DNA from: Candidatus Shapirobacteria bacterium
GTDB lineage: Bacteria > Patescibacteriota > Microgenomatia > UBA12405
NCBI GenBank assembly: GCA_041658125.1
Contig: JBBAAS010000003.1
Coordinates: 10,830 to 74,829 of the forward strand
Length of the DNA stretch: 64,000 nucleotides
Direction: 5' to 3'
Shown here: piece after piece, positions 6,267-62,919 of the stretch
Layout of the letters: every line of letters begins with the position of its first letter
Numbering within the stretch: position 1 is the stretch's first letter
Translations under genes and position numbers: made by a program
The notes under the pieces: generated by a model
Seen by the model: the letters and a program-made list of their open reading frames with translations, nothing else
Database searches by the model: none
Told to the model about the DNA's origin: nothing

Positions 6267-6327
6267 TGACACCGATAATTTCGGTTTTCATTTTCATTTT
6301 TTCCCGATTGTATCGGGATTCGTACTA

Positions 6328-7796: not shown

Positions 7797-7870
7797 TGAG
7801 GATTTGTCCCGATCGAAAGATTGGGACCATGAATCGAACTCTTCTGGTACTGACAATCTGACTTCAAACA

Positions 7871-11653: not shown

Positions 11654-12090
11654 TGAAAATTTTATTAAAAAATTTAATACGGTCTTCGTTTATTTGTTTT
11701 CTAATTGCCGCCATTATTGAATTATTTTGGCAGTATTTACTTAATCAAGAAACCAAAAACGGAGGTGAAATCAGTATTTTTTCCAGGTTTCTAATTCCTG
11801 GTTTTTTTCTAGCTTATTGGCTTTTTTTCTGGCCTCTAATCCAAACTTTCTTGATGATCCGTTTCTACGGTTTTAAAAGTTTAGTTATCCGTTTATTTAC
11901 CTATATTCTTTTGTCGGTATCGATGCCTATGGGTTGGGCTGGTTTTTTCGGAATTTTCAAATTTTTTACCGGCGAGTCTAGCACGAATATCACTCTTGCC
12001 TCTGAGTTTGGCATGTATTTGTCCATTTTATTCACTCAGTTCGCTCTCTTTTTTTTGTTTGTCAAAGATAGTCATATCGAAAAAAAGTGA
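11653..12090 (+). CDS. hypothetical integral membrane protein
   Basis: Four predicted TM helices; no family recognised. Confidence 0.4.
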   Translation: MKILLKNLIRSSFICFLIAAIIELFWQYLLNQETKNGGEISIFSRFLIPGFFLAYWLFFWPLIQTFLMIRFYGFKSLVIRLFTYILLSVSMPMGWAGFFGIFKFFTGESSTNITLASEFGMYLSILFTQFALFFLFVKDSHIEKK

Positions 12091-12644
12091 TCCTTATTTA
12101 TGCCTTTTCCAATCCTTGGGGTACCAACATTTCCCGCCGTGTCCTCCTCGAACTTCAAAAACAATTAAGTCTCCCTTTCCTCAAAGGGAGAAGCCCCGAT
12201 GAGACTTTAGTCGACATCGGGAAGAGGGATTTTGCCCTAATTCACGGTCACCCCCGCCCATTCTTCCAAACTCATATTGAACACAAAATTTACTCAATTA
12301 TCATCGGCCTTGGTGATGGCTCCAAATTTATCTCCAAAATCAAAATCGAAACCCGCGCCAAAAATGTCTATTTAGACAAAGAAATTTATCCCTTTTCTCC
12401 GATATTTCTCGATCTTAACCTTCCCGTTGTCGACAACTTTGATTCGGATTATTTCCAAATCGGCTCCAATATGGGTACCTACAACTGCAACTACATGGCC
12501 TATCAAACCCAGCTTCACCTCAATCAAAAAAGTCCGCAAACTAAGCATTTATTTCTCCATCTTCCCCAAAAATCCAACGCTACCGATCTAGCCTCTCGAA
12601 TTCTTTGCCTTTTTCAAGACAATCAAGTATTGAATAAACCGTAA
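12087..12644 (+). CDS. hypothetical protein carrying an in-frame repeat copy
   Basis: GTG start overlaps the previous stop. Contains a short palindromic repeat that encodes QLSLPFLKGRSP. Confidence 0.4.
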   Translation: MILIYAFSNPWGTNISRRVLLELQKQLSLPFLKGRSPDETLVDIGKRDFALIHGHPRPFFQTHIEHKIYSIIIGLGDGSKFISKIKIETRAKNVYLDKEIYPFSPIFLDLNLPVVDNFDSDYFQIGSNMGTYNCNYMAYQTQLHLNQKSPQTKHLFLHLPQKSNATDLASRILCLFQDNQVLNKP

Positions 12645-12649
12645 ATTAC

Positions 12650-12678
12650 TTGAAAATAGCCTAAAATTGTTATATAAT
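12650..12678 (+). promoter_or_regulatory. sigma-70-type promoter: TTGAAA, 17 nt spacer, TATAAT
   Basis: TTGAAA at 12650-12655 and TATAAT at 12673-12678, just upstream of the ATG at 12686. Confidence 0.45.
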
Positions 12679-12685
12679 ATATTAT

Positions 12686-13165
12686 ATGAGTCAGTCTTCA
12701 GAAGTAGTACCTTATCCCCAAGTTCCTGTTTTACCTCTTTCTGTTTATGCCTCTTTAGAAGCAAATTTTAGTTTAAACCAATTCAACGCCTCTCGGTTAA
12801 GACATGACCTTGATGCTTATTCTGTCCATGCTCATTTGAGCACTGCATCAGGATATGTACAAGCCAAAGAATACAGACAACAATCCCTGGTCCCTTCTAT
12901 TTCCGCTAATATTCTTCGGGTTGCAGCCGAACAAATGGAAAAGTTAATAATGGCCGAAGACACAGCCCTGCTTAAAAGAATATACGATGGTCGCTATACT
13001 CAATTAGACGTTATCGTCGGCCTTATCGATTTAAATGGTCAGCTTGTCCCTCGTCGTTTTCGAATTGGTAAAAATCCGTCATCTCCTATGCTTCTCGATC
13101 TTCGTCAATATGTCCAATTTGATGCTCGTCATCCTGCCGTTTCTGGACTAAGAATAGATCTATAA
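12686..13165 (+). CDS. hypothetical protein
   Basis: 159 aa ORF preceded by a good promoter; no recognisable domain. Confidence 0.4.
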   Translation: MSQSSEVVPYPQVPVLPLSVYASLEANFSLNQFNASRLRHDLDAYSVHAHLSTASGYVQAKEYRQQSLVPSISANILRVAAEQMEKLIMAEDTALLKRIYDGRYTQLDVIVGLIDLNGQLVPRRFRIGKNPSSPMLLDLRQYVQFDARHPAVSGLRIDL

Positions 13166-13198
13166 TAATTGTTCTCGCCTTTTTGTTAAAATACTCCT

Positions 13199-13996
13199 AT
13201 GCCGCGTGCCAAGGATCTCGACACTATCGCTCCCGATGATATGGTCTCTGCCATCCCGTCGGTTTCTGTCCCCAAACTCAAAAAACACAAAAAAGCTCGA
13301 TCACATTCTGTAGAGACGCAGCGTGATGCGTCTCTCCCTCTCAACCCCTCGTCTCCTCTTAAAATCGCGCCCCTGCCCTCAAGATCTGCCGATCTCAAAT
13401 ACCGCCAAAAAGTTTACGAGCTTATTAAGGACAAAACCGCCTGGCCCCTTTCCGCTTTTTTAGCCCGCCCCAAAGTTTTCAATTTTGATGGTCAAAACGA
13501 AGACGAGGAAATTTTACTGGTTCTTCGCCGCCATTGGTTTACCAATCTTCACTGGATTTTTTTGACTATCGTTATGCTGGTTGGTCCCATGTTTCTTAAA
13601 TATGTGCCCTTACTTAGCTCTTTTTCTGCCAAATATCAATTTGTTTTTATCCTTTTTTGGTATCTTCTCACTTTCGCCATTACCTTCGAACATTTTCTTT
13701 CCTGGTACTTTAATGTTTTTATTATTACCGAAGAACGGGTCATCGACATCGATTTTTACAATCTTTTGGACAAAAAATATTCCGAGGCCGAACTGGCCAT
13801 GATTCAGGATGTAACTTCGAAGCAAGGCGGTGTCAGTCAAACCGTTTTTGACTATGGTGATGTTTTGATCCAAACTGCCGCCGAAATTCCGGTTATCAAA
13901 ATCGATCAAATTCCCAATCCCAATCTTATAGTTCAAATTCTTCAGCAAATGCGTGGTGAAGAACGTCAGGAAGAGCTCGAAGGGAGGCAAAAATAA
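13199..13996 (+). CDS. membrane protein with a bacterial PH-like (bPH_2/YdbT-like) domain
   Basis: Two TM helices followed by EERVIDIDFYNL...GDVLIQTAAEIPVIKIDQIPNP, a YdbS/YdbT-like pattern. Confidence 0.4.
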   Translation: MPRAKDLDTIAPDDMVSAIPSVSVPKLKKHKKARSHSVETQRDASLPLNPSSPLKIAPLPSRSADLKYRQKVYELIKDKTAWPLSAFLARPKVFNFDGQNEDEEILLVLRRHWFTNLHWIFLTIVMLVGPMFLKYVPLLSSFSAKYQFVFILFWYLLTFAITFEHFLSWYFNVFIITEERVIDIDFYNLLDKKYSEAELAMIQDVTSKQGGVSQTVFDYGDVLIQTAAEIPVIKIDQIPNPNLIVQILQQMRGEERQEELEGRQK

Positions 13997-14276: not shown

Positions 14277-15788
14277 TTAAAAATTCAGCTTAGTTTCGAT
14301 ATGGTTTTCAGGCAAATAAAGCTTCTGGTCAACTGACAGTTCATCAATAAACTTCAAGTTATGAGAAACGATCAACATAGCTCCGTGGTATTCCTTAAGA
14401 GACTCTAAAATCAATCTTTGTGACAGCGGATCTAGGTATGTAGTAGGTTCGTCTAGAACAAGAAAATTGAAGTTTTGGGCTAGCAATCTGGCAATTGACA
14501 ATCTAGTTTTTTCTCCCCCTGACAAACTAGCTATCTTTTGGAATACTTTGTCACCGACAAAAAGCATTCGACCCAAAAGAGCCCTAAGTTGACCCTCGGT
14601 AAGATTGCTTTCCAGCTTTTTTATCGTTGCTATTAAAGTTAGATCCGGATCTAAATCAGATAATTCTTGGCAGTAATAGCCCCAACTTAATTTATAATCA
14701 CGAACAACTTCTCCTTCGTCTGGAACTAGTTCGCCCAATATTATTTTAATAAGAGTGGATTTGCCGGCACCGTTTGGACCCAGAAGAGCGGTTTTTTGGC
14801 CTCTTTTAACGGTTAAATTAACCTGACTTAAAACTTTTTTGTGGCCGAAAGATTTACTGATATTTTTGACATAAACCGGGATTTCGCCGACGCGAGTGGG
14901 ATCGGGCAAAATGAGCTTCATTTTTTTGGCTTCGGGGGGCATAGTCGGCATATTTTCCTCGAGCTTTTCGACCCGTCTCCGAACCATCAATTTGATGCGG
15001 ATACCTTTTTTAGATTTAAAATGAGACATTTTTAATAAACCTTTTTTCATTTGTTTTAAATGTTTTTGTTCGGTTTCTATTTTTCTTTTCAACAAAGCTT
15101 CTTTTTCGGTTTTGAGTTTTAAAAAATTTTGATAATTACCGCCATAGATATCAATATTTTTAGTTTGAGGGTTAATGTAAAAAATTTTATCTAGTTTTTC
15201 ACCCAACAACTCCAAATCATGAGAAATTAGTAATAGAGTTCCTTCGAAATGACACATAAAATTAGTAACCCATTTTTTACCTTCTTCATCTAAAAAATTG
15301 GTTGGTTCATCTAAAAACAATACGTCAGCCTGACTTAAAATGGCTCTGGCTAAGGCCAGTCGGGTTTTTTGGCCACCGCTTAAAATTTGAGGTGAAATAT
15401 TTAGGCTTATATCCTTTAGTCCTAATCCGGCCAAAACCCGATTAATTTCATGGTCAGGAATGTTAGAAAAAACATTTAAATAATCAGTAATGTCTTTGGC
15501 TTTATCCATGATTAAATCGGCCTTGACTTCCTGAGGAACAAAGGCAATTTTACCTTGTACAAGAACATGACCACCATCGGCTTGTTCTAGACCGGATAAG
15601 ATTTTGAACAACGTTGTTTTACCGGAACCGTTTACTCCAACCAATCCAACCTTTTCATGATTGCTAACTGAAAAATTTACCCCAGAAAAAAGAGGCTGAT
15701 TGGTCCAGGTAAAGAATAAATCGTCAACTTTAATCATTTTGTCATATTTTAAGATAAATTTTTCACTTGGTGTAGGCCTAATTGACAT
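14277..15788 (-). CDS. ABC-F family ATPase (tandem ABC domains)
   Basis: Two Walker A sites (GVNGSGKTT, GPNGAGKST) and two signature motifs (LSGGQKTRL, LSGGEKTRL). The start is taken at the internal MSIRPTP, because the track ORF would overlap the divergent gene. Confidence 0.7.
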   Translation of the reverse strand: MSIRPTPSEKFILKYDKMIKVDDLFFTWTNQPLFSGVNFSVSNHEKVGLVGVNGSGKTTLFKILSGLEQADGGHVLVQGKIAFVPQEVKADLIMDKAKDITDYLNVFSNIPDHEINRVLAGLGLKDISLNISPQILSGGQKTRLALARAILSQADVLFLDEPTNFLDEEGKKWVTNFMCHFEGTLLLISHDLELLGEKLDKIFYINPQTKNIDIYGGNYQNFLKLKTEKEALLKRKIETEQKHLKQMKKGLLKMSHFKSKKGIRIKLMVRRRVEKLEENMPTMPPEAKKMKLILPDPTRVGEIPVYVKNISKSFGHKKVLSQVNLTVKRGQKTALLGPNGAGKSTLIKIILGELVPDEGEVVRDYKLSWGYYCQELSDLDPDLTLIATIKKLESNLTEGQLRALLGRMLFVGDKVFQKIASLSGGEKTRLSIARLLAQNFNFLVLDEPTTYLDPLSQRLILESLKEYHGAMLIVSHNLKFIDELSVDQKLYLPENHIETKLNF

Positions 15789-15889
15789 GTCGAGACAAAT
15801 TAACAGGGTATTTTGGCTAAAATATTTTAAAAAATAAGCTTCGTTTTTCAGCCTTTTATCCGTCAATAGTTGTTTACAACAAGGAGTAT

Positions 15890-17629
15890 ATGTCTTATAA
15901 TATACACATGGCAAAAGAAAGGAATCCTATGGCGAAAACCGCCGAAAACGGAGAGTCTGACTCTAGAAAATTTGTTGCCTCCATAAAGGATGTTGTTTTT
16001 TCAACTTATGATCGTGTTTTGTTTTACGATGTAAATTTTATTCTTCATCGAGGTGATACTGTGGCGGTAACCGGTCAAAGTGGTTCGGGCAAAACGGTGT
16101 TACTAAAAATATTAATGGGTTCAGAACAGCCGGATACGGGTGAAGTTAATATAGCGAAAAATACAAGAATAAGTTATGTTCCTCAGGAAATGGAGGATTT
16201 AGAAGTGAGCGAAGACATTTCTGTTAAAGAATTATTTTTTAAAGCAAGAGGCTTGGATCAAATAGAAGTTAGGTTAAGACACATTGAGGCTCAAATGTGC
16301 CGAAGTGATCTGAACAGAAACGAGATGGATAAAGTTTTGGGTGAGTATGATCGTATCCAGGACGAATTTCAGAGAAGAGGTGGTTATCTTGCAGAAACAG
16401 AAATGGATTTAATACTTGAAGGGTTGGGAGTCGATGAAAGAACTAGCGGACACATAAATCACGAAACAAAATTGTCTGAAGTAAGTAGTGGACAAAGAAC
16501 CAGATTACTTTTAGGCCAGGCATTGTTCGCTGATAGTAACCTGTTAGTTCTGGATAACCCGACTGCTCATTTGGATGTAAAAGCTGTCGGGTGGTTGGCA
16601 TCTTTTGTTAGGGATAGTAATAAAGCAATATTGATTGCCACGCAGGACACCGCCTTTGCTGAAGCTGGTTGTAATAGAATTGTTGAAATTACTGATTTCG
16701 GAAGAGTATTAACGTTTGAGGGAAATTATTCTGAATTTGCCTTAAAAAGAGATGTAATATTGGAGGCTGAAAGAAGAGCAGCAGAAACTGCAAAAGAAAA
16801 ATTAGCAAAGCTTCAAGAAACCTATAACAAATTTAAAGGGGAAGGTGTGTTCAGAAGAAGCGCCGATATGGCTCAGGTAGGCAGAGCTTTAGAGTCAAGG
16901 ATAAATCGGATGCAAGAAGACTTGGAAAATATGCCGGGAATCATACCAACATTTAGGGATAACAGAGCGAAAGAAATGGTTTTTACTTCAAGGGGAAAGG
17001 GAGGGACAATAAGCTTTGAAGGATTAGCAAAAAGTTACGACGGATATGAGGCGATTGACATTGGGGAACTGGATTTAATAGTAAAAAGAGGACAGATATT
17101 GCATATCTCTGGTGAAAACGGAAGTGGTAAAAGTACGCTTGTAAGAATGATCGCCGATAAGGCTGGCTTGGTTTCTTTTAAGCCTGATAGAGGTGAAATA
17201 AAAATAGGTGAAGATATGGTAGTGGGATACTATGCCCCTGATAGGTTGGGGATATCTAGGAAGGGATTGCTTTTTAGTGAAATCCTTGATGCTATGTTGA
17301 TAAGAAATGAGGGCGAAGCTTCGGTGATACTACAATTTTTCGGTTTTCCCCCTCAGGGATTAAGAGAAAGAAGGATAGAAACACTAAGCGGTGGAGAGAA
17401 AAAACAATTGGCGTTAGCAAAAATTATGGCTATAAGGCCGAATATTTTATTGTTGGATGAACCCACGGATGGATTAAAACAAACTATCAAAAAAAGGGTG
17501 GCTTCGGCCCTTAAGGAATTTGAAGGGGCGGCGGTAATAGTATCACACGATTCAGAATTTATTAACGATTTAAATCCTGATTTAGAGCTATCTCTCCCGG
17601 ACAATAAAGTCAAGGTCAAAAAAAATTAA
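15890..17629 (+). CDS. ABC-F family ATPase (tandem ABC domains)
   Basis: GQSGSGKT and GENGSGKST Walker A sites; VSSGQRTRL and LSGGEKKQL signatures. Alternative starts at 15908 or 15929. Confidence 0.7.
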   Translation: MSYNIHMAKERNPMAKTAENGESDSRKFVASIKDVVFSTYDRVLFYDVNFILHRGDTVAVTGQSGSGKTVLLKILMGSEQPDTGEVNIAKNTRISYVPQEMEDLEVSEDISVKELFFKARGLDQIEVRLRHIEAQMCRSDLNRNEMDKVLGEYDRIQDEFQRRGGYLAETEMDLILEGLGVDERTSGHINHETKLSEVSSGQRTRLLLGQALFADSNLLVLDNPTAHLDVKAVGWLASFVRDSNKAILIATQDTAFAEAGCNRIVEITDFGRVLTFEGNYSEFALKRDVILEAERRAAETAKEKLAKLQETYNKFKGEGVFRRSADMAQVGRALESRINRMQEDLENMPGIIPTFRDNRAKEMVFTSRGKGGTISFEGLAKSYDGYEAIDIGELDLIVKRGQILHISGENGSGKSTLVRMIADKAGLVSFKPDRGEIKIGEDMVVGYYAPDRLGISRKGLLFSEILDAMLIRNEGEASVILQFFGFPPQGLRERRIETLSGGEKKQLALAKIMAIRPNILLLDEPTDGLKQTIKKRVASALKEFEGAAVIVSHDSEFINDLNPDLELSLPDNKVKVKKN

Positions 17630-18744
17630 GTTAGGTGCCATTCTGTAATCAACTTTCGAAGTACAAAATTTTGTCCCTTGTTTCGAAATGCTGGTACGCT
17701 ATTTATGACGTTGTTTGGGGTTGATATGGAATTAGAAAATTTTTTCTGTAATTTATTATAAAGTGAACTGTCTTGAAGGACTTGAGAGGAAAGTTTTGAT
17801 GTAATAGCGATAGATTCTTTTTCTGTCATCTGGCTTAGCTTCCAGTCAAAAGGAAAATAATCTTCCCAGGAGAAGATATTATGAGCAGAGGCTTTGACTA
17901 TAGCAGTTTTAGACAGAGCCCATTGGCTTAAATTATGAGGAAGAAATATATTGAGATCTTTTTTCAAGTGAATACTTATAAACGTGACTCCCATACCGGC
18001 AGGCGTATAAATCTTGTGGCATTGTTTGATTTTGAGAATAAATTCATCAAAAGGAAAAGAGCCACAAGTAATTTTTTTGGTTATAAATCGATTAATATAG
18101 TCAGTAGAAGCTTTCCCGCCGGCAATAATGATTTCCTGCTCGGGATTAAAATGTGTATCGTTAATTAATCTGATTAGAAGATCCAAGTATTTTTCGGGAA
18201 TACCCGAGACCAGAGGGTTTTGGGTTCCGCCTAAATGGAAAACAATTGAGTTGTTTAAATTAACTTTTTTAACAAATTTAAAATCATCTGTAATTGGCGG
18301 AATATCAAAGTGATTTTTTCCGGGATATTTGACTTTGTTCAGTCCATTATAGAAATAATATTTTGCCAAGCTATATTCAGCCGGACGGTTTTGACGCCAA
18401 AACCATCCTAACGGATCAATTAACGCAGAGGAAGTATCTATATTGTAAGCTGCTTGGATCGCAAAACGGTTAAGACAACTAATGATCAAGGGATGATAAG
18501 TAAAACGTTGAAGAAAGAGTGTAATTTCTTCAATACTTCTTTGGTTGATTTCGTAAAAATTAAACTTATCTAGCTGATGTTGATTAAGAATTTCATTACA
18601 TAAACCACTGCTGGCAAAAATTAATTGGACGTTTTTAAGTGAGTCGTTAAATTTTTTGGCAATAGGAATTAGGGTTCCGGTTGGTCCATAACCAAAAGGA
18701 TTGGAAAAAAAAATTACAGTTTTTGGGTGTTGATAATTTATCAT
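17626..18744 (-). CDS. hypothetical protein, possibly a GT-B-fold glycosyltransferase-like protein
   Basis: 372 aa with weak Rossmann-like segments (IIIAGGKAS...TPAGMGV). Assignment is tentative and based on cluster context. Confidence 0.3.
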   Translation of the reverse strand: MINYQHPKTVIFFSNPFGYGPTGTLIPIAKKFNDSLKNVQLIFASSGLCNEILNQHQLDKFNFYEINQRSIEEITLFLQRFTYHPLIISCLNRFAIQAAYNIDTSSALIDPLGWFWRQNRPAEYSLAKYYFYNGLNKVKYPGKNHFDIPPITDDFKFVKKVNLNNSIVFHLGGTQNPLVSGIPEKYLDLLIRLINDTHFNPEQEIIIAGGKASTDYINRFITKKITCGSFPFDEFILKIKQCHKIYTPAGMGVTFISIHLKKDLNIFLPHNLSQWALSKTAIVKASAHNIFSWEDYFPFDWKLSQMTEKESIAITSKLSSQVLQDSSLYNKLQKKFSNSISTPNNVINSVPAFRNKGQNFVLRKLITEWHLT

Positions 18745-19658
18745 GCTATTTGAATTGTGGAATCGAATGGACTATTTGTAACTAATTTTATTAATTTTTT
18801 TAACGGGATAGTTTCAGTATTATTTTTACTTTTACCCATAACAAGGCCGTTTCTTCCCAAAACAATGGGGGTATAGAGGGTTTGAGGGTATTTGGCTTTG
18901 GAATTAAAAAAATCAATGAGTTTCTGACGAACGATAAAATCACCTTCGGAGTAGTGATCAGCGCCTGTGATGCAAAGATCAATATTGTAAATTTCTAAGC
19001 GGGGAATGGCCAGGGGTTTGTGGTAAAACCAGTATTCAAAGTCTTGGTATTTGCCTGTTGATTCTTGATAACAATTTTCGCATTTATGAATAATGTTGTT
19101 TCCCCTCACAAAAGTTGATCCCTTTGCTAAGTGACACTTTGGACAAATCGCCATCGCATATTGAACAGGTTGTTCCAATACGACTTTATCGGTGTATTTT
19201 CTGAAAACATCAGCTAAAAGTTCGGGGTGCTCTATTGTCTTAAGAAGACATCGTTTCATTAAAGGGTGGTTTTTCATCGAAGAATTTCGGACAGCTTTAA
19301 TAGTTATTTTAGGATAATATTTTTTTAATTGATTAACTCTCTTGAGAATAACAGGCTCCCAATAGTCAACAACTGTTTTTGAAGGATCTTCAACGCTGTA
19401 AGTAAACTGAAAAGTAGTTTTTTGTGGGTAAATATTAAAAATATAGGTTTTAGGATCAGGCCCGTCTAGCTTGTCTTGCTCCCAGTCATTGATAAAAATA
19501 TAAAAATTAAATTGTATTTGTTTTCCCAGTTTTTCCATCTGACGGCAGAGAAGAAGAGGATAAACGACAAAGGGCATCATGTTGCCTGCGTGAAAACCGT
19601 AAGGCCGAATACCTAAATAGATATTTTCTTTACCGGTTAAGTTTTGAGCGGCAGACAA
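18741..19658 (-). CDS. class I aminoacyl-tRNA-synthetase-like ligase (HxGN and KMSKS-like motifs plus a Cys4 ribbon)
   Basis: IYLGIRPYGFHAGN (HIGH-like) near the N-terminus, VMGKSKNN (KMSKS-like) near the C-terminus, and CPKCH...CENC between them. Embedded in a sugar-modification cluster. Confidence 0.4.
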   Translation of the reverse strand: MSAAQNLTGKENIYLGIRPYGFHAGNMMPFVVYPLLLCRQMEKLGKQIQFNFYIFINDWEQDKLDGPDPKTYIFNIYPQKTTFQFTYSVEDPSKTVVDYWEPVILKRVNQLKKYYPKITIKAVRNSSMKNHPLMKRCLLKTIEHPELLADVFRKYTDKVVLEQPVQYAMAICPKCHLAKGSTFVRGNNIIHKCENCYQESTGKYQDFEYWFYHKPLAIPRLEIYNIDLCITGADHYSEGDFIVRQKLIDFFNSKAKYPQTLYTPIVLGRNGLVMGKSKNNTETIPLKKLIKLVTNSPFDSTIQIA

Positions 19659-19684
19659 TAGTCCGTTGTAATAGAGATAAGGTT

Positions 19685-20611
19685 TTATATTTTTTTTATA
19701 AAAAAATTAAATTTAGATAACATATATGAATTAATCGGCTGAGGCACATGGGGAGGATTATTGTCTAAAATATCAGAAAAATAAGTACAAGCATCGGAAA
19801 GACAAGCAAAACATATCCATCGATAAAGGGTTGTATCTAGAGGATACTTAACGGAAGATCGAGAATTATAGGACTGGTAAAAGGTATCGAAAACATCAGC
19901 CCATGGCCCTTCAGCTCCATCCGGGTATGACCATTCGGCTAAAGCTAATCCCAAATCTTTTAAAAGAAAACCCGAACAAGACCAATCAAAATCTAAAATA
20001 GCCTCAATTCCTTCTTGATTAAAAAAAACGTTGTTGGGACGATAGTCGTTATGAATGATACCCTGAGGACTGGATTGTGATCTGGCCCAGTAAAGATATT
20101 CTTTTACCTTAGCAATAAATTCACGTCCATCTTTATAAGAAGAAAGAAATAATTTCTCATGAGATAAAATTCTTTCTAGTTCGGTATAGATAGTCCTGGC
20201 TCGACTATAAGTAATGTGTAATCGTTGGCCTTTTTGATGGAGATCAGCAAAAGCTTGAGCTACTAATGCAACTTTTTTTAGGTCTGGTTTACAATCTTTG
20301 TTAACTTCAAGGTGATGGCCAGAGACAAAGGGGAAAAGCGTGCCTATTTGCTCGTTATCCGTAATAAAATAAGGCCGATTATCCTGGGTGTAGACCGGAG
20401 GTATTACTTTGGCACCAAGTTGATAAAGTTGTGAAAGAACTTCTACTTCAAAATCGATATTATTTATTTGACGACGGCTTAAGCGTAATACTAGGGTTTT
20501 TGAATCAGTGATGATCTTAAAAACTTCGTTATCCGGCCCTTTCCTAATTAACTCGATTTGCGTTGGGGAGGTAAGATTATAGCGTTGCTGGAGTATTTGA
20601 TCGAGAGTCAT
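19685..20611 (-). CDS. APH/choline-kinase-family phosphotransferase
   Basis: IIHNDYRPNNVFF (Brenner HxDxxxxN) and ILDFDWS (DFD/DxD) motifs. Confidence 0.65.
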   Translation of the reverse strand: MTLDQILQQRYNLTSPTQIELIRKGPDNEVFKIITDSKTLVLRLSRRQINNIDFEVEVLSQLYQLGAKVIPPVYTQDNRPYFITDNEQIGTLFPFVSGHHLEVNKDCKPDLKKVALVAQAFADLHQKGQRLHITYSRARTIYTELERILSHEKLFLSSYKDGREFIAKVKEYLYWARSQSSPQGIIHNDYRPNNVFFNQEGIEAILDFDWSCSGFLLKDLGLALAEWSYPDGAEGPWADVFDTFYQSYNSRSSVKYPLDTTLYRWICFACLSDACTYFSDILDNNPPHVPQPINSYMLSKFNFFIKKI

Positions 20612-21803
20612 TTAGACGTAGAGAAACCAGTAATTTTTTGGTTAAACTGTTCCAGGAAGTGATAGTTTTTGACGGAGTAGAGGTTATTGTTTTAGTATAT
20701 ATTTTTAAGTGTTGTTGGGCGATATATTTCCAGTCAAAGTTTTTAATGTTGGCGGAGGCGTTGGCAATAATTTTTTTCCTTATATCTGGTTGATTTATGG
20801 CTAGTTCTAATAGGCCGGTTAATTCGTTAATATTTTGACTCTCAAAAATGAATCCTGTTTTTTTGTCTTTAATATATTCAGGAATTCCGCCGACATTACT
20901 TCCGATACTCAAACATGAGGCCGCTTGAGCTTCTAAATTAACGACTCCACCACCTTCTGCTCTTGATGGACAAACATGAGCAATTGCTCCTTTCATGTAT
21001 TCGAACACCTTGTCGGATGTTAGTTCGCCTAAAAATTGAACCCGGTTCAATAGGTTTAATTTCTTGGTTAAATTTATTAAATTATCCTTACCTTCCCCGG
21101 AACCAGCGATAATAAGTCTGAGTGGTGGATATTTGACAGATATTTTTGAAAAGGCTTGAATTAAGATATCAACGCCCTTGTCTGGGGTTAATCGCCTGGC
21201 GATGAAAATATAGGGGAAAAGGGATTTATGTTTCGGTGATTTTTTTATACGGTTTAGATCAACACCGGCAAAAATAAGGTTGATATGATTTAGCGTGGGA
21301 ATGGCCTTTCGAGCTAGGCATATAAGATCATTGGAAAAGGCAATGTGGCAATCCGCCTGGGTTACCGCTTTGGGAACAGTAGTTAAGCCATCTTGCCAAA
21401 GTTTTATGGTTTCGGGATCGTCAGAATTGGGAAGATCGCCGCCAGCAAAGCTAACAATAAAAGGAACTTGCCATAGACGACTGAGAAATAGTCCAATTAG
21501 GGGCATTGGTCTTCTAATACCAATAAGATGAATAATGTTTCCTGAAATGGTTTGCTTGTATTTATTAATAATCTTAAAAACATTAATAAAATCACCTAAT
21601 TGTTGGGGACGTGAGATACGTAAAATTGAAACACCGTCGACTGTTTCAAATTCGGGAAGATCGAAGGGAAACTTTTTAGTAAGAACAGCCGTTTTAATAC
21701 CCATTTTTTGGTAAAATCTTGCAAGATTGGCAATGCAAGTTTCCACTCCTCCGACATTGGGTTTGTAGACAGAAGCCATGAACAAAACTTTTTTAATAAC
21801 CAC
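20577..21803 (-). CDS. GT4-family glycosyltransferase
   Basis: N-terminal KPNVGGVETCIANLARF and C-terminal EGGGVVNLEAQAASCLSIGSNVGGIPEYI match the GT4 EX7E region. Confidence 0.75.
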   Translation of the reverse strand: MVIKKVLFMASVYKPNVGGVETCIANLARFYQKMGIKTAVLTKKFPFDLPEFETVDGVSILRISRPQQLGDFINVFKIINKYKQTISGNIIHLIGIRRPMPLIGLFLSRLWQVPFIVSFAGGDLPNSDDPETIKLWQDGLTTVPKAVTQADCHIAFSNDLICLARKAIPTLNHINLIFAGVDLNRIKKSPKHKSLFPYIFIARRLTPDKGVDILIQAFSKISVKYPPLRLIIAGSGEGKDNLINLTKKLNLLNRVQFLGELTSDKVFEYMKGAIAHVCPSRAEGGGVVNLEAQAASCLSIGSNVGGIPEYIKDKKTGFIFESQNINELTGLLELAINQPDIRKKIIANASANIKNFDWKYIAQQHLKIYTKTITSTPSKTITSWNSLTKKLLVSLRLNDSRSNTPATL

Positions 21804-22207
21804 TACTCACAAAATAAACTGTTAATAAGGTGGCAAGCTTCCTCTAAACTAGACAAACGAACATGAGAGTGGTAGTTTAGCCAGTAGTCGTTAAGGTGAG
21901 CATTACCAAAGATAATAATAATTTTTTCAAGCTGATAAGCATAAAAAACTTCCATTGCCGTACCGATCATGCTGGCGTTTGGTAAGGTGTCGTTGACCAG
22001 AAGAATACTAGCCCGACGAATGTCATCCTTGTCTCGAATTACGGCTCCCTTTGGATCAGGAAAAGTTTCTTTTTTTTCCCTACCCCGATAAGCATGCAGT
22101 ACTCTAAAATGAACCTCAAGAAGTTTTTTTGCCTTTTCCCTCCAGGCAATACCTTCAGCTCGGGAAATTCCTCTCATGGGACCGCTAAGAAAAACTATTC
22201 TTTTCAT
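21803..22207 (-). CDS. nucleoside 2-deoxyribosyltransferase-like protein
   Basis: MKRIVFLSGPMRG and the overall size resemble the NDT/YtoQ family; weak. Confidence 0.4.
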   Translation of the reverse strand: MKRIVFLSGPMRGISRAEGIAWREKAKKLLEVHFRVLHAYRGREKKETFPDPKGAVIRDKDDIRRASILLVNDTLPNASMIGTAMEVFYAYQLEKIIIIFGNAHLNDYWLNYHSHVRLSSLEEACHLINSLFCE

Positions 22208-23160
22208 ATTTTATAGAAAGATGCCCTTTCATCTCTCAATTTTTGATTGGGTAAAATAATTAAAAATGGTTTTTTAGAGATACTATTGGCTATTTCTTCT
22301 GAAGTATAAAGTAATTCTTTAACTTTTTCATTTTCCCTGGAACCAGTAAAAACTATGTCTATTTTTTTTGAAACACCACTTTTTTTAATAAGTTTTTTAG
22401 CCATTTGATAGATATTAAATTCGTGCATATTTAGCACAAATAGTTCTTGGCCATTCATAATACTGGCTGCTAATAACACGGAATTTACGGCTTTGGGAAT
22501 AGTAGTAAAAAAACGTTTCATTCGCTTATCAGTAACGGTCACGGGTTCGTTGTTTTTTATTTGTTCACGCCACAAAGGAATGACCGAACCACAAGAGTCC
22601 AAAACGTTTCCGAAACGAATTACTGAAAAAATTGTGTTAGAAGAGAGGTCCAAGGTATGAGGACCAATAAAAAGTCTTTCCATAACCAGCTTAGTCATAC
22701 CCATAAAAGTGGTCGGGTTAACAGCTTTATCGCTGGAAATGGCAATAACCTTGTTGATTTTATATTTAACTGCTAAGTCAAAAATGTTTTGGGAACCAAG
22801 GATATTGGTTTTAATTGCTTCCTGCGGGTTGTGTTCACAAACAGGAACGTGTTTAAGTCCAGCAGTGTGAAAAATAATATTGATACCCTCCATGACCGAT
22901 TCGAGGCGATCTTTATCCCTGATATCCCCGATACAATAATCTATAGCTGTAGAAGTTTTAAGGTGTTTTAGTCGACAATCTAATAAGAAATGCCGGTATT
23001 CGCTTCTGGCGTAGACTACAATTTTTTTAGGTTGATATTTTGTAAGCTGAACAACGATTTCAGAGCCAATAGATCCGGTCCCTCCGGTTACTAAAATATT
23101 CTTACCTTTAAAATTTTTCGAAAGTAAGGCAGCTAGGCTAGTTTCTTGATCGTATGACAT
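22204..23160 (-). CDS. NAD-dependent UDP-sugar 4,6-dehydratase (PseB/CapD/FlaA1-like)
   Basis: NILVTGGTGSIGSEIVVQL and a CapD-like core with YxxxK. Confidence 0.7.
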   Translation of the reverse strand: MSYDQETSLAALLSKNFKGKNILVTGGTGSIGSEIVVQLTKYQPKKIVVYARSEYRHFLLDCRLKHLKTSTAIDYCIGDIRDKDRLESVMEGINIIFHTAGLKHVPVCEHNPQEAIKTNILGSQNIFDLAVKYKINKVIAISSDKAVNPTTFMGMTKLVMERLFIGPHTLDLSSNTIFSVIRFGNVLDSCGSVIPLWREQIKNNEPVTVTDKRMKRFFTTIPKAVNSVLLAASIMNGQELFVLNMHEFNIYQMAKKLIKKSGVSKKIDIVFTGSRENEKVKELLYTSEEIANSISKKPFLIILPNQKLRDERASFYKI

Positions 23161-24233
23161 ATAAAACTAATTTGGTCTTCAGTAAGACCTATATAAAAGG
23201 GAAGAGCTAGGGTTTGTGATGAAATCTTTTCAGCAATAGGAAAATCGCCCGGTTTATATCCGAACATTTTTCTCATAAATGGTTGCAGATGAATTACTGG
23301 TAAATATGGCCGAGTGTTAATTCCCTTATTGGCTAAAAGTCGGATTAATTTATCTCTTTGACCATTGGTGATGCGGACGACATAAACAAACCAGGAATTA
23401 GTACGGTTTTTTCCTGTTTTCGGTGTAATAATTCGAGGGTGTCCTTTGAGTTCTTTTGTATATTGTTGAGCGATTTTGTTTTTCTGTCTGATCATCCAGT
23501 TTATTTTTGATAATTGAGTGATGCCTAAAGAGGCGCTTAAATCGTCCATCCGATAGTTATAACCGAGCGATTGATGAAGCATAAATTGATCGTCGAGAAT
23601 ACGGCCTTGATTTTTAAGACTCTGACAAGTCTGCCAAACAGATTTTGAGGAAGTGACAATCATTCCGCCCTCACCGGTAGTCATTTGCTTGTTCGGATAA
23701 AAGGCAAAAACGCCAATATCTCCAAAAGTGCCTGCCATTTTCCCCTGATATGTAGCTCCAACACTTTCACAAGCATCCTCAATTATTTTGAACTTATGTT
23801 TCCGGGCAATTTTTATTATTGGATCGTAATCTGGTGTTTGGCCAAAAATGTCTACAGTTAATAGTCCTTTCGTTTTAGGGGAAATGGCTTGAGATATTAA
23901 AGCCGGATCGATATTAAAGGTATTTTCTTCAATGTCAACAAAAACCGGTTTAAGGTCCTCAAATAGGAGACAATTACTAGAGGCGATAAAAGAGAATGGA
24001 GTGGTAATAACTTCGTCTCCTGCTTTGAAATCAAGTGCCCTCACTGCAAGATGTAATCCGGCAGTACCGTTACAGACAGTGCAGGCATATTTTGCCCCAA
24101 TAAATTGTGAAAAAGTTTTTTCAAAAAGTTGGTTTTTAGGACCACAAGCTAATTTTCCTGATTCGAGTGTTTGAACAACGCCATCAATGTCTTTTTGGTC
24201 AATATATGGTTTAGCCAAGGGAAGGCAGAGCAT
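23133..24233 (-). CDS. DegT/DnrJ/EryC1/StrS-family PLP-dependent sugar aminotransferase (PseC-like)
   Basis: Family-typical N-terminus (YIDQKDIDGVVQTLESGKL...CNGTAGLHLA) and C-terminal conservation. Confidence 0.8.
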   Translation of the reverse strand: MLCLPLAKPYIDQKDIDGVVQTLESGKLACGPKNQLFEKTFSQFIGAKYACTVCNGTAGLHLAVRALDFKAGDEVITTPFSFIASSNCLLFEDLKPVFVDIEENTFNIDPALISQAISPKTKGLLTVDIFGQTPDYDPIIKIARKHKFKIIEDACESVGATYQGKMAGTFGDIGVFAFYPNKQMTTGEGGMIVTSSKSVWQTCQSLKNQGRILDDQFMLHQSLGYNYRMDDLSASLGITQLSKINWMIRQKNKIAQQYTKELKGHPRIITPKTGKNRTNSWFVYVVRITNGQRDKLIRLLANKGINTRPYLPVIHLQPFMRKMFGYKPGDFPIAEKISSQTLALPFYIGLTEDQISFICHTIKKLA

Positions 24234-24909
24234 GATTATATGAAACTATTAACTGAAACGATTCGGCATATTTAAATCCTGATTGGATCCCCCGGTATTT
24301 TGCCAAAGATTTAACTCCTTGAGCCGAACGAGGATGGGGATAAGGTCTTATCTCGGTGCGACAAAGATTAAAAGCTTTAACCTTTTTCTCTATATAAGAA
24401 GAGATGTCGAAATAAGTATTCGGGTTAAAAGGATTATCCCTTGACCATTCGGTGGAAGACAAAACTTCGTATGAATAAACTTGATCAAGAAACGGTTTCC
24501 CCGGGCGTGTGACTACTTTTGTTGATTGATAAACCAGGATATGATCTAAATTGACATCAGTCGATGAATGAGTATAGATAATCGACGGTTTAATTTGATT
24601 AATTACATTCTCTAATTTTCTATTGATATCAATGTGGGCTATTGTGTCAAGCTTCATATCAGGAAAATCTAGGCGAATAAACTCTTTAATTCCTAAAAAT
24701 TTCTGAACTCTTAAAGTTTGTTGGTCTTTGGCCTGAGCTTTTTTTATATCTCCTTGATATTGAGAGCTCGAACCATCAGTGACTACACAAACATAAACGT
24801 TATCTTTTCTTGAGGTGTAGTATTGAATGACTCCACCGCAACCTAACACCTCATCGTCAGGATGAGCCGCTAAGATAAGTATGTTTTGACTATTCGTTGA
24901 GTATGTCAC
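24211..24909 (-). CDS. LmbE/PIG-L family N-deacetylase
   Basis: ILILAAHPDDEVLGCGG is the PIG-L signature. Confidence 0.7.
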   Translation of the reverse strand: MTYSTNSQNILILAAHPDDEVLGCGGVIQYYTSRKDNVYVCVVTDGSSSQYQGDIKKAQAKDQQTLRVQKFLGIKEFIRLDFPDMKLDTIAHIDINRKLENVINQIKPSIIYTHSSTDVNLDHILVYQSTKVVTRPGKPFLDQVYSYEVLSSTEWSRDNPFNPNTYFDISSYIEKKVKAFNLCRTEIRPYPHPRSAQGVKSLAKYRGIQSGFKYAESFQLIVSYNHALPSLG

Positions 24910-25837
24910 CGGTTTTGAATTGTTTTATAACCTGAACTAGTTTATTTTGAGAATTTATGATTTTCTTTAAACAAATTATCCGGCTCCCTGTAAGAATCCA
25001 TAGGCCTTTGTTTGTCACTTTGGCTATTTGGCCCGGAAAACCAGAAAATTGTGGAGCATTTTTTAGTATTTCTGAATCTTTGACGTAATAGGTTTGGCTA
25101 TTGTAAGAAAAGTTAGCCAAAGGATATATGTCGGTGACAGCTCTAATTAAATTTTGTATAGACAGGGCCGGATAATTAAAATTAATACGACTATGTTTTG
25201 GACGTCGGACAAGCAGATAAGTAGCTTGCGAGTTGTTTTGTTTTGTTGCTTTGGCTCTATTGTTAACAATGTCATCAAAATTATTGAGCAGTAATTTGGA
25301 AGCTAGTAACGTCATTTTTTTATAAAAACTTGAGGCATTGTCGGAATCTAAAATTTTAAATTTTTCTTGGTCAATTATCGGCCCGGAATCACATCCGGCA
25401 TCAAGATAAAAAAGCGTAACGCCGCCATATTTTTCTTGATTAATGAAGTGCCAGGCAATAGGAGCTCTGCCTCGGTTTTTGGGGAGAAGTGCTGGATGCA
25501 AACCAACACATCCATGTTTGGCAGTTTTTATTAAGGGTAAGGATAATAATTGAGACCAACCGTTTACTATAATTATATGAGGGCGGTATTTTTGGAGTAT
25601 TGGGAGAAGAACGTTAATTTTTTCAATATAATACAAGGATATATGGGATTTCTTGGCCATGGAAGAAAAGTCTTGATAGTCTGAGACATTGGCCGCTTTA
25701 CTAAAAGGAAGTGTCAGAATAGTGTCAATTTCTTTACCATGAGCAATAAGATCCTTAAGACAAATAAAACCATCTTTTGTCATTGACAAATAAATATTTT
25801 TGTCACTAAAAAAAGACCTTAAGATATCTTCATCCAT
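24890..25837 (-). CDS. formyltransferase (Fmt/ArnA-like sugar N-formyltransferase)
   Basis: IIVNGWSQLL...GCVGLHPALLPKNRGRAPIAWHFIN is the formyl-transferase catalytic motif. Confidence 0.65.
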   Translation of the reverse strand: MDEDILRSFFSDKNIYLSMTKDGFICLKDLIAHGKEIDTILTLPFSKAANVSDYQDFSSMAKKSHISLYYIEKINVLLPILQKYRPHIIIVNGWSQLLSLPLIKTAKHGCVGLHPALLPKNRGRAPIAWHFINQEKYGGVTLFYLDAGCDSGPIIDQEKFKILDSDNASSFYKKMTLLASKLLLNNFDDIVNNRAKATKQNNSQATYLLVRRPKHSRINFNYPALSIQNLIRAVTDIYPLANFSYNSQTYYVKDSEILKNAPQFSGFPGQIAKVTNKGLWILTGSRIICLKKIINSQNKLVQVIKQFKTGDILNE

Positions 25838-25918: not shown

Positions 25919-26509
25919 TTATTTAAAACCGCTATTTTGAAAAATTTTTTTCAAACTAGGAAGATAATACTGCTTGTATAAATCGTCCTTTTGCTGATGA
26001 GTTAAATTTGAAATTAAAGCAGGATATCCCTTGGGAATCATAAGGTAGTTGAAAAAATTTGTAATTGAAGGATTTGGTGTTAAAAGATCAGTGTTGAAGG
26101 TTACAGGTACAATTATTTTACAAATAAAATATTTATCCTTACAGGCAATACAATAATATTTAATAATTTTTCCTGTATTTATCTTATTTTTTATTATGTA
26201 TTGTCGCCAATAGTCGATTGGGCTGTTGATGTCAAAGTTCTTATTACGAATAACAGAACTGGGTTGTAAGTCTATGGAAAGGTGATCAAAGTAAACACCA
26301 GAGTCTTCAGAAATAATCGCTTTTTTAATTATGGAGTAATAGCACTTTGCTTTGATTAGACAATTTTCTTTTTCATTCTTTCCGTTTTCGTCGGGGGGCT
26401 TAATGTTGAACGAAACAATAGTTTTTATCTTTAGAGAAGGATTTAAGAGGCGGATTTGATAAGAAATATTTTTATATTTATCGATATTTGTGGTAGCTAT
26501 ATAAATCAT
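25919..26509 (-). CDS. Ham1/RdgB-like non-canonical NTP pyrophosphatase (divergent)
   Basis: MIYIATTNIDKY...ENCLIKAKCYYSIIKKAIISEDSGVYFDHL parallels the ITPase N-terminal and central motifs. Confidence 0.35.
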   Translation of the reverse strand: MIYIATTNIDKYKNISYQIRLLNPSLKIKTIVSFNIKPPDENGKNEKENCLIKAKCYYSIIKKAIISEDSGVYFDHLSIDLQPSSVIRNKNFDINSPIDYWRQYIIKNKINTGKIIKYYCIACKDKYFICKIIVPVTFNTDLLTPNPSITNFFNYLMIPKGYPALISNLTHQQKDDLYKQYYLPSLKKIFQNSGFK

Positions 26510-26535: not shown

Positions 26536-27267
26536 ATGTTGAATTCACAGGCTATATATGACGAGTTTGCTCCGTTTTATAGAAAATATTCGAAAGAAAA
26601 GAAAGAATATATCGACACTATCGATAAAATTATTAGCGACTATTGCGTAAAAAAAACTATCATAAAAATGATAGATCTGGGGTGTGGAGACGGGGTTAGG
26701 GGAAAAAGCTTGGCTCAAAAAATTAAACCTGAGGTGATTAAAATGGTTGACAACAGTGAAAAAATGATTGAACGGGCAAAAAAATTATGCGGAGTAAAAA
26801 TTGCTGAGGGTGATTTTTCTGAGAAAAGATGGCGGGAAAAAGATAGGTACGAAGTGGTGATCTGTCTGTGGAATGTATTAGGACATATTTCTTCATATAA
26901 AAAAAGGCTTTGGGCTTTAAAAAACATTCGATCAGTTTTAGCCGAAGAAGGAGTGGCGTTTGTGGATCTAAGTAATAGGTATAACGTAAAATATTATGGG
27001 TGGAGTAAGGTGTGGAAAAATATAAAAGAAGATTTAAAAAGACCTAGCTATAAGAACGGCAATTTCAAATATTTGATTGATGTTGGTTTAAAAAAAATAC
27101 CTTCAGTATGTCATTTTTTTAATCCATGGGAAATGGAAAAAATGATAAGAGAAGCAGGTCTAAAAATCAAAAAAAGATATTTTATCAATTATGAAAACGG
27201 TAAAATTGAAAAATATTTTTGGTCTGGCCATATATTCTCTATATTAGAAAAACAGGCAAAAGTATAA
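26536..27267 (+). CDS. class I SAM-dependent methyltransferase
   Basis: MIDLGCGDGVRG (motif I) followed by an acidic residue after beta-2. Confidence 0.65.
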   Translation: MLNSQAIYDEFAPFYRKYSKEKKEYIDTIDKIISDYCVKKTIIKMIDLGCGDGVRGKSLAQKIKPEVIKMVDNSEKMIERAKKLCGVKIAEGDFSEKRWREKDRYEVVICLWNVLGHISSYKKRLWALKNIRSVLAEEGVAFVDLSNRYNVKYYGWSKVWKNIKEDLKRPSYKNGNFKYLIDVGLKKIPSVCHFFNPWEMEKMIREAGLKIKKRYFINYENGKIEKYFWSGHIFSILEKQAKV

Positions 27268-62739: not shown

Positions 62740-62748
62740 ATTTTCTTT

Positions 62749-62785: not shown

Positions 62786-62787
62786 TG

Positions 62788-62859: not shown

Positions 62860-62919
62860 AATGGCTGGATTATACCAAAAAAGCCGCCATTCCTGGCAGC
62901 TTTCTGTTAACACCCTGGG

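Follow-up and report, generated by a model that had tools for sequence, protein, structure and literature searches.

A stand-alone class I lysyl-tRNA synthetase-like protein as candidate amino acid ligase in a putative hexopyranosyl-nucleoside cassette of candidate phyla radiation bacteria

A 64-kb stretch of DNA from a Candidatus Shapirobacteria bacterium (contig JBBAAS010000003.1; hereafter the window, i.e. the whole 64,000 nucleotides that were analysed) contains an open reading frame (ORF) at 18741-19658 whose product resembles the catalytic domain of class I lysyl-tRNA synthetase (LysRS-I), and KRSL is the name used here for the family of this ORF. Based on our findings we propose, with a probability of roughly one half, that KRSL is an ATP-dependent ligase that joins an amino acid to an aminohexosyl nucleoside in a pathway that probably yields a translation inhibitor. 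Two lines of evidence carry this proposal: the relationship of KRSL to LysRS-I, and its place in a gene cassette of the candidate phyla radiation (CPR, Patescibacteria) whose other members are related to enzymes of blasticidin and mildiomycin biosynthesis.

The mechanical ORF (18741..19658, minus strand) is uninterrupted, starts with TTG and encodes 305 aa, and an identical protein in NCBI, a hypothetical protein from a metagenome-assembled genome of Candidatus Shapirobacteria, is annotated in this 305-aa TTG version. In frame 5' of the TTG the sequence encodes N-I-K-P-Y-L-Y-Y-N-G-L-L, whereas the family N-terminus is MKPYLYYDGLL, i.e. homologs are longer by about 10 residues at this end, opening with MKPY(F/L)..G(L/I), and the window has ATA (19688-19686) for ATG. 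As this upstream peptide matches the conserved N-terminus of the family, the true start is probably the ATA at 19688, and the gene would span 18741..19688 and encode 315 aa. The ATA overlaps the stop codon of the upstream kinase gene as ATATAA (19685-19690, minus strand). Translation may either be coupled and begin at this rare ATA, or begin at the TTG 10 codons downstream, the conserved N-terminal segment then being lost. The gene and its motifs are as follows:

18741..19688, minus strand: KRSL, a stand-alone class I LysRS-like catalytic domain (probable span, 315 aa)
19581..19592, minus strand: HAGN (H23-N26), the HIGH-equivalent ATP-binding signature, aligned with H45, G47 and N48 of LysRS-I (HxGN)
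19071..19145, minus strand: CPKC...CENC, a Cys4 knuckle (C172, C175, C193, C196) within the Rossmann-fold insertion
18825..18839, minus strand: MGKSK (M274-K278), the loop equivalent to KMSKS, for which LysRS-I has K-(I/M)-S-S-S in the alignment

In an alignment of 30 relatives with 37-80% identity the family is full length throughout (~315 aa) and has 33 invariant positions. The HIGH-equivalent signature is part of GIRPYGFHAGN (residues 16-26), of which H23, G25 and N26 are invariant in all 30 members, and the KMSKS-equivalent loop is part of VMGKSKNN (residues 273-280), with M274, K276 and S277 invariant. The four cysteines are likewise invariant and match C185, C188, C208 and C211 of LysRS-I column for column. 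A preliminary description, made from the sequence of the window, had named a HIGH-like motif, a KMSKS-like motif and a Cys4 ribbon as marks of an enzyme resembling an aminoacyl-tRNA synthetase (aaRS) of class I; all three are present, invariant in the 30 members and aligned to LysRS-I, and the retention of these motifs is thus an observed property of the family.

The homology to LysRS-I is evident at several levels. The window protein matches the Pfam family of class I LysRS (PF01921) with E 6.7e-5 and 22.4 bits, somewhat short of the gathering score of 27, and 29 of the 30 KRSL members match it with E<0.01, the best at E 9.4e-17. In an exhaustive hidden Markov model (HMM) search of 1.84 billion (1.84e9) representative proteins the KRSL profile reached full-length proteins of 535 aa at E 2.8e-5, which are bona fide LysRS-I (PF01921 at E 1.5e-121, plus an anticodon-binding domain). 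Aligned by hhalign with four genuine LysRS-I, the KRSL profile gave a probability of 98.7% and E 2.7e-16 over 274 columns, residues 1-284 of KRSL corresponding to residues 3-300 of LysRS-I, whereas the C-terminal 235 residues of LysRS-I have no counterpart. As the alignment ends at about residue 300 of 535, KRSL lacks the anticodon-binding domain; the genuine LysRS-I P0231 carries an Anticodon_2 domain, which KRSL does not. This agrees with the earlier view that the protein is too short for a full aaRS (~300 aa compared with 535).

Structure prediction points in the same direction. The AlphaFold2 model of KRSL has a mean predicted local distance difference test score (pLDDT) of 93.8 and a predicted template modelling score of 0.91, and the best Foldseek match is 1IRX, the class I LysRS of P. 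horikoshii (E 2e-11, template modelling (TM) score 0.63-0.68), which leads the other structural matches by a wide margin; MshC, BshC and GluQRS are all among the structural neighbours. Sequence searches of the PDB were less informative: phmmer with the KRSL sequence gave no match there, and the KRSL profile gave weak matches in the KMSKS region of IleRS and TyrRS (E~0.03) and did not reach 1IRX. By these comparisons KRSL is genuinely homologous to the catalytic domain of class I LysRS. Both the profile search and the structure prediction had been proposed in the preliminary description as checks; the significant similarity to LysRS-I shows that the motif resemblance is not fortuitous, and of the parents considered at that stage LysRS-I is the one that stands, while CysRS/MshC and GluRS/GluQ drop out.

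KRSL and LysRS-I share 22 positions that are invariant in both, as seen in the merged alignment. These include G-I-x-P-x-G...H-x-G-N, GxDH, the tryptophan of the second strand and the four cysteines as well as W210, R220, D227, G232, H235, G239 and S277, the last being the serine of the KMSKS loop. Other positions that are invariant in LysRS have changed: F49-R50-E51, which follow HxGN, are replaced or variable in KRSL, and so are E245 and K249; S39 and S41 correspond to R18 and Y20, D232-W233 of the PWRxDW motif to H213-K214, and S257 to D240. In turn R18, Y20, H213-K214, D240 and R244 are new invariants of KRSL. Of the altered LysRS-I residues, F49-R50-E51, those of PWRxDW, E245 and K249 presumably have roles in lysine binding; the searchable literature gave no usable data on lysine-binding residues of LysRS-I from which to predict the amino acid. 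The amino-acid pocket of KRSL thus appears to be remodelled relative to LysRS-I, and KRSL is predicted to be functionally not an enzyme of the LysRS family. A genuine LysRS gene was looked for in the window, and none was found.

The KRSL profile retrieved 115 representatives from the 1.84 billion proteins, essentially all from CPR bacteria. Five records with the same cassette and 48-57% identity to the Shapirobacteria protein (L003, L004, L006, L009, L013) are labelled uncultured Gammaproteobacteria, Pseudomonadales, Alphaproteobacteria or Rickettsiales; either these records are mislabelled or horizontal transfer has spread the cassette. A sister subfamily of truncated LysRS-I-like proteins occurs in Chloroflexota/Dehalococcoidia (E 1e-37 to 1e-12; P0193, P0245 and P0217 in loci L027, L028 and L029), where it sits between the glycine-cleavage genes gcvT-gcvH-gcvP and purL, with no sugar genes. 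Most of its members keep GIRPYGYHAGN and KMSKS, and P0217 has lost both ATP motifs and kept the Cys4 knuckle. That KRSL keeps the HxGN motif and the K-S of its KMSKS loop without exception, whereas P0217 has lost both, suggests that ATP binding is under selection in KRSL. An archaeal truncated LysRS-I-like protein, P0228, lies among housekeeping genes. P0228 and the Chloroflexota group were also considered as guides to the role of KRSL and were set aside as uninformative. The nucleoside cassette itself is specific to the CPR clade. In two other long proteins, P0127 and P0130, KRSL is preceded by N-terminal extensions of 204 and 243 aa.

The linkage of KRSL to its neighbours is observed directly. 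The sample comprised 23 species-representative loci of GTDB genomes and three metagenomic loci, and co-occurrence was counted by tblastn of the window proteins against 25 loci, the near-identical P0014 loci L001 and L002 both being counted. The cassette comprises eight families, i.e. KRSL, NDT134, GTx372, DegT, MT243, GT4, APH and ABC-F, measures ~8 kb and has the canonical order NDT134-DegT-MT-GT4-APH-KRSL-GTx372, with ABC-F on one side. GTx372, encoded by the 372-aa gene downstream of KRSL, is present in 24 of the 25 loci, the DegT aminotransferase in 22, NDT134 (134 aa and, with 53-70% identity, the best conserved cassette member) in 21, an ABC-F ATPase within 10 kb of KRSL in 21, the 243-aa S-adenosylmethionine (SAM)-dependent methyltransferase MT243 in 19, GT4 in 18 and the APH kinase in 16. 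De novo clustering of all ORFs in the collected loci gave no other recurrent family. Moreover, one metagenomic locus (L026, 729-2687) encodes a natural fusion of APH kinase and KRSL (P0126, 652 aa), followed by GTx372 and ABC-F. Between 25837 and 17626 of the window, each ORF adjoins or overlaps the next, an arrangement typical of one operon. The genes around KRSL are, from its immediate neighbours outwards:

17626..18744, minus strand: GTx372, a GT-B glycosyltransferase, overlapping the KRSL stop by 4 nt
19685..20611, minus strand: APH-family kinase directly upstream of KRSL (PF01636, E 1.1e-24)
20577..21803, minus strand: GT4 glycosyltransferase (PF00534, E 8e-39)
21803..22207, minus strand: NDT134, of the nucleoside 2-deoxyribosyltransferase/MilB/DNPH1 superfamily (by profile, AlphaFold2 and hhalign)
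22204..23160, minus strand: PseB-like UDP-HexNAc 4,6-dehydratase (PF02719, E 1e-93; TIGR03589, E 1e-76)
23133..24233, minus strand: DegT/PseC-like sugar aminotransferase, a core member (PF01041, E 4e-115)
24211..24909, minus strand: PIG-L family de-N-acetylase (PF02585, E 4.5e-26; BshB1, 1e-15)
24890..25837, minus strand: ArnA/Fmt-like formyltransferase, a lineage-specific add-on found in two other loci only
26536..27267, plus strand: MT243, a core member and SAM-dependent methyltransferase of class I (PF13649, E 3e-11)
15890..17629, plus strand: ABCF2, an ABC-F ATPase convergent with GTx372 (two ABC_tran domains and ABC_tran_Xtn)
14277..15914, minus strand: ABCF1, a second ABC-F ATPase (NF000355, 'ribosomal protection-like ABC-F', 380.3 bits, cutoff 380)

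The preliminary description had placed the gene between a kinase and a glycosyltransferase inside a sugar cluster. The APH kinase upstream and the gene with glycosyltransferase fold downstream bear out the first part; of the second, a conserved cassette with sugar genes holds, and it is better described as a hexopyranosyl-nucleoside cassette. The co-occurrence analysis that had also been suggested revealed a tightly conserved neighbourhood across the 25 loci. The idea that the enzyme might aminoacylate a sugar or a nucleoside is strengthened by this neighbourhood, which includes homologs of an N-glycosidase and of cytosylglucuronate (CGA) synthase, and by the kinase-KRSL fusion.

The partner families link the cassette to hexopyranosyl nucleosides. 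GTx372 has no Pfam match, and the CGA synthase BlsD/MilC (TIGR04467) is the best NCBIfam match of 16 of its 17 members; the best E value is 1.1e-14, and the scores are far below the equivalog cutoff of 300 bits, i.e. they denote relatedness and not the same reaction. Against the BlsD of Kitasatospora, however distant, the GTx372 profile aligns end-to-end by hhalign (98.6%, E 7.2e-16, 361 columns), and GTx372 can be assigned as a distant full-length homolog of BlsD/MilC. Among PDB sequences the NDT134 profile matches 4JEN, a CMP N-glycosidase, best, and the catalytic GT..E motif falls in register. Its AlphaFold2 model (pLDDT 93.5) retrieves by Foldseek only NDT, MilB, BcmB and DNPH1 proteins, with TM 0.73-0.74 for MilB, and hhalign against BlsM gives 89% and E 2e-6, so that NDT134 is a probable nucleotide N-glycosidase. 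The DegT protein of the window has 28% identity to BlsH over 213 aa; MT243 shows no similarity to BlsL.

A variant of the cassette, found in L003 (6450-14183) and in similar form in L004 and L005, is devoid of GT4, the methyltransferase and the canonical APH, and adds a radical SAM enzyme similar to BlsE, an APH(3')-like kinase (182 bits, cutoff 205), a Ham1-like nucleoside triphosphate (NTP) pyrophosphatase and a 316-aa protein, which in L003 has no similarity to BlsF. The radical SAM enzyme has the BlsE cytosylglucuronate decarboxylase family TIGR04466 as best NCBIfam match (E 6.6e-58, runner-up 2e-26; 197 bits, cutoff 400) and shares 30-33% identity over ~90% of its length with annotated blsE products of three actinomycetes. 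Neither the window nor the canonical cassette has a BlsE/MilG-type radical SAM enzyme, which was found in L003-L005 only.

In blasticidin and mildiomycin biosynthesis a nucleotide hydrolase (BlsM/MilB) is followed by the CGA synthase (BlsD/MilC) and the radical SAM enzyme (BlsE/MilG), and then by the DegT aminotransferase (BlsH/MilD) and the attachment of an amino acid (PMC3715490, PMC11784345). The CPR cassettes reproduce this order and differ in the amino-acid-attaching enzyme. No candidate of the ATP-grasp, AMP-binding/adenylate-forming or GNAT type was found in the CPR cassettes, nor one of the BlsK/MilH type, which leaves KRSL as the sole predicted amino-acid-activating or amide-forming protein of the conserved set.

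From these relationships we infer a pathway in which ATP-dependent adenylation, the acceptor, the amino acid, the base (perhaps cytosine) and what the product does biologically are all putative. KRSL would have evolved from a class I LysRS by keeping the ATP signatures and the Cys4 knuckle, losing the anticodon-binding domain and remodelling the pocket. NDT134, like MilB/BlsM, would free the nucleobase from a nucleotide, and GTx372, like BlsD, would couple it to a nucleoside diphosphate-hexose, giving a hexopyranosyl nucleoside. DegT would then introduce an amino group into the sugar, in one variant after a BlsE-like radical SAM step, the methyltransferase and GT4 would decorate the nucleoside, and the APH kinase would phosphorylate it; the phosphorylated form may be the acceptor of KRSL. 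KRSL would form an aminoacyl-AMP and transfer the amino acid to the nucleoside, at its sugar amine or at a hydroxyl; the nucleoside would take the role that the tRNA 3' end has in the ancestral enzyme. The product would be an aminoacyl or peptidyl hexopyranosyl nucleoside, probably an inhibitor that targets the ribosome, and the adjacent ABC-F and kinase would confer self-protection.

The ABC-F proteins and kinases are compatible with such a role. ABCF1 and ABCF2 lie back to back beside the cassette (14277-17629), an arrangement also seen in L011. ABCF2 has NF000355 as its best NCBIfam match (274.6 bits, below the cutoff of 380) and belongs to an ortholog group of six, being an ortholog of the cassette-linked ABC-F in other Microgenomates loci. 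The cassette-linked ABC-Fs of other lineages fall into different ortholog groups, which suggests that they were recruited repeatedly. The APH kinases of canonical and variant cassettes are two unrelated subfamilies, and these two subfamilies together with the ABC-F linkage would fit self-protection against a ribosome-directed product. A complete bls cluster was located via its BlsE-like gene on a linear plasmid of Kitasatospora sp. NBC_00039 (L031); at 11740-13380 this otherwise typical blasticidin S cluster has, beside blsD and in divergent orientation, a gene for an ABC-F-like protein of 546 aa with 25% identity to ABCF1 over its full length. A more far-reaching reading is put forward tentatively, as a possibility short of even odds: the ultra-small CPR bacteria would produce an antibiotic of the blasticidin/gougerotin class, an aminoacyl-hexopyranosyl nucleoside aimed at the ribosome, KRSL would install the aminoacyl group on a nucleoside resembling the tRNA 3' end, and ABC-F and kinase, the latter at times fused to the ligase, would shield the ribosomes of the producer.

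Several points weigh against the proposed function. The window protein by itself stays under the Pfam gathering threshold (22.4 versus 27 bits), and the first lysine of KMSKS is not conserved in KRSL. The matches of GTx372, NDT134 and the radical SAM enzyme lie far below the NCBIfam equivalog cutoffs and thus denote relatedness only. The canonical cassette has no obvious oxidoreductase to provide the keto substrate of DegT, the BlsE-like enzyme being confined to L003-L005. Homologs of GT4, PIG-L, PseB and PseC are equally typical of surface-glycan or low-molecular-weight-thiol pathways. The cassette-linked ABC-Fs form three lineage-specific ortholog groups and could be housekeeping translation factors. 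Finally, class I LysRS requires bound tRNA for adenylate formation, a dependence that a derivative acting as proposed must have shed; GluQRS has lost the tRNA dependence of activation relative to GluRS.

The strongest rival explanation is that KRSL is an aminoacyl-tRNA-dependent transferase, similar to BlsK or SbzA, that would hold the charged aminoacyl-A76 in the old adenylate site and pass the amino acid to the nucleoside. The tRNA requirement of LysRS-I activation implies a tRNA-binding past of KRSL, and precedents exist, i.e. tRNA-dependent transfer in CGA-type pathways by BlsK with Leu-tRNA (PMC12710036) and by MilH (PMC11784345), and the use of aminoacyl-tRNA by the aaRS-like enzymes SbzA and AcmF (PMC12945691). 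Against this, 30 of 30 KRSL members retain HxGN and the K-S of the KMSKS loop, motifs that can be lost, as P0217 shows. Moreover, the KRSL profile and the protein at the BlsK position are unrelated by hhalign (0.13%), the anticodon-binding domain is gone and no tRNA genes recur near KRSL across the loci. We consider tRNA-dependent transfer rather unlikely. The 0.13% also disposes of the idea that BlsK might be LysRS-like kin of KRSL; the protein compared is a 626-aa hypothetical protein of L031, assigned as BlsK by gene order and not by name.

Likewise, the cassette could produce an aminoacyl-amino-sugar conjugate or a surface glycan by the logic of mycothiol and bacillithiol synthesis, in which HexNAc is transferred by a GT4 glycosyltransferase and deacetylated by a PIG-L enzyme, and the amine thus freed is acylated by an aaRS-fold ligase. 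This logic fits the window, where the GT4 protein has only generic GT4 matches (BshA 1e-22, MshA 4e-21), but not the KRSL family, as PIG-L is rarely present. The add-ons of the window are lineage-specific: PIG-L occurs in two other loci only (3 of 26 counting the window), and the PseB-like dehydratase elsewhere only in L008, L011 and partly L022, so that PIG-L, PseB and the formyltransferase are found in 2-3 of 25 loci, as compared with 21 for NDT134 and 24 for GTx372. Neither flippase nor polymerase nor polyprenyl-phosphate transferase is part of the conserved set, variants of the cassette carry the BlsE-like radical SAM enzyme, and the linkage to ABC-F would be left unexplained. A thiol-like or glycan product is thus, in our view, unlikely.

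KRSL might also act on RNA and aminoacylate a glycosylated hypermodified nucleoside in tRNA or rRNA, as GluQRS does in its own context; the cassette would then serve to make this modification, and ABC-F would reflect a role linked to translation. The partners are, however, best matched by the small-molecule nucleoside-antibiotic enzymes BlsD, BlsE and BlsM/MilB, the cassette contains no RNA-binding or base-exchange enzyme and no tRNA genes, and the patchy spread over 115 representatives is that of an accessory trait, which makes this explanation very unlikely. That KRSL is a decaying LysRS fragment, or a drug-resistant or decoy copy of LysRS with no ligase role, is highly improbable, since, although antibiotic clusters often hold resistant aaRS copies and a canonical ATG start is missing in the window, the family is full length at ~315 aa with 33 invariant positions and a confident fold (pLDDT 93.8), could not work as LysRS without the anticodon-binding domain and the pocket residues, and is fused to a kinase in P0126.

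The window as a whole is a chromosomal stretch of a CPR bacterium, as indicated by 16S rRNA, tmRNA, tRNAs and ordinary housekeeping genes. The 16S rRNA gene lies at 6321-7797, and neither 23S nor 5S rRNA was matched in the 64 kb, i.e. the rRNA genes are unlinked. The cassette is flanked by genes for a Ham1-like (ITPase-type) protein (25919-26509), an HMGL-like aldolase/synthase (27307-28413) and a NUDIX hydrolase (28570-29007), of which the Ham1-like gene recurs beside the cassette in 5-6 loci and the HMGL-like gene in 3-5; possible roles are nucleotide-pool sanitation and precursor supply. A fused restriction-modification enzyme of the Eco57I/MmeI type (38768-41953, 1061 aa) lies in the part of the window with the lowest GC content (31-33%), which may belong to a horizontally acquired island. 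TsaC (Sua5/YrdC) and TsaE are fused in one protein of 392 aa (56218-57396), adjoining TsaD (54394-55488), and at 62665-62989 two tRNA-Met(CAT) genes are accompanied by one for tRNA-Ile whose anticodon is TAT.

Truncated aaRS paralogs with non-tRNA or non-canonical acceptors have arisen from CysRS (MshC), GluRS (GluQRS), class II LysRS (EpmA/PoxA), SerRS, IleRS and AlaRS. An aaRS paralog for a non-tRNA acceptor is of a known kind; new would be the LysRS-I parent, the CPR host and the pathway setting. In the searchable literature, the coverage of which is incomplete so that prior work may exist, neither a truncated paralog of class I LysRS nor the KRSL cassette nor peptidyl nucleosides from CPR bacteria were found described. 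If the proposed function is correct, no paralog of class I LysRS would have been known before KRSL to use a substrate other than tRNA; KRSL would fill a gap among the aaRS families and would allow testing whether the tRNA dependence of LysRS-I activation can be shed. It would also constitute a third independent way of attaching an amino acid to a CGA-type nucleoside, after BlsI and BlsK/MilH. CPR bacteria have genomes of ~1 Mb and live on other microbes, and to our knowledge hardly any secondary metabolism is ascribed to them. If a chemical weapon is indeed widespread in this group, it would bear on their interaction with hosts and competitors.

Compared with its presumed ancestor, KRSL shares with class I LysRS, as represented by 1IRX, the catalytic domain of ~270 residues with HxGN, GxDH, CxxC...CxxC and a KMSKS-type loop. 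LysRS-I is, however, a housekeeping enzyme of ~535 aa with an anticodon-binding domain, whereas KRSL has ~315 aa, is devoid of this domain and is encoded in a sugar-nucleoside operon. The class I aaRS fold is also that of MshC, BshC and GluQRS, each of which joins an amino acid to a non-canonical acceptor. In the cysteine ligases MshC, of mycothiol synthesis, and BshC, of bacillithiol synthesis, this acceptor is an amino sugar, which is acylated at its amine; both enzymes work together with GT4 and PIG-L enzymes, homologs of both of which are encoded in the window. MshC is derived from CysRS, KRSL from LysRS-I, and the partnership of KRSL with PIG-L is, unlike that of MshC and BshC, not conserved (GT4 in 18 of 25 loci, PIG-L in 3 of 26). 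GluQRS/YadB, the glutamyl-queuosine tRNA-Asp synthetase, originates from GluRS and still acts on a nucleoside of tRNA, whereas KRSL is found in a small-molecule biosynthetic context with no association with tRNA.

Closer in setting are the enzymes of nucleoside antibiotic pathways. SbzA (IleRS-like) and AcmF (AlaRS-like) are aaRS-derived and aminoacylate sulfonamide and sulfamate nucleoside antibiotics in an aminoacyl-tRNA-dependent manner (PMC12945691). Like KRSL they stem from aaRSs, but from other aaRS families; a 2026 review of natural-product aaRS-like enzymes lists only IleRS- and AlaRS-like examples and none derived from LysRS-I (PMC12945691). BlsI, present in the Kitasatospora bls cluster, is an ATP-grasp carboxylate-amine ligase and would hold the same pathway position as is proposed for KRSL, i.e. 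a cytosyl-hexose nucleoside, assembled by enzymes of the BlsM, BlsD, BlsE and BlsH types, receives an amino acid on its aminohexose. BlsI, however, has the ATP-grasp fold and proceeds via an acyl-phosphate intermediate, whereas KRSL, with its class I aaRS fold, presumably forms an acyl-adenylate. In mildiomycin synthesis the amino acid is attached by MilH/MilI, MilH being annotated as 'putative tRNA-dependent aminoacyltransferase' (PMC11784345). BlsK and MilH extend a peptidyl nucleoside derived from CGA by one amino acid (PMC12710036, PMC11784345), and BlsK uses Leu-tRNA and a [3Fe-4S] cluster. The CPR cassettes would thus resemble the blasticidin and mildiomycin pathways in the assembly of the nucleoside and use an enzyme of LysRS-I descent for the attachment of the amino acid.

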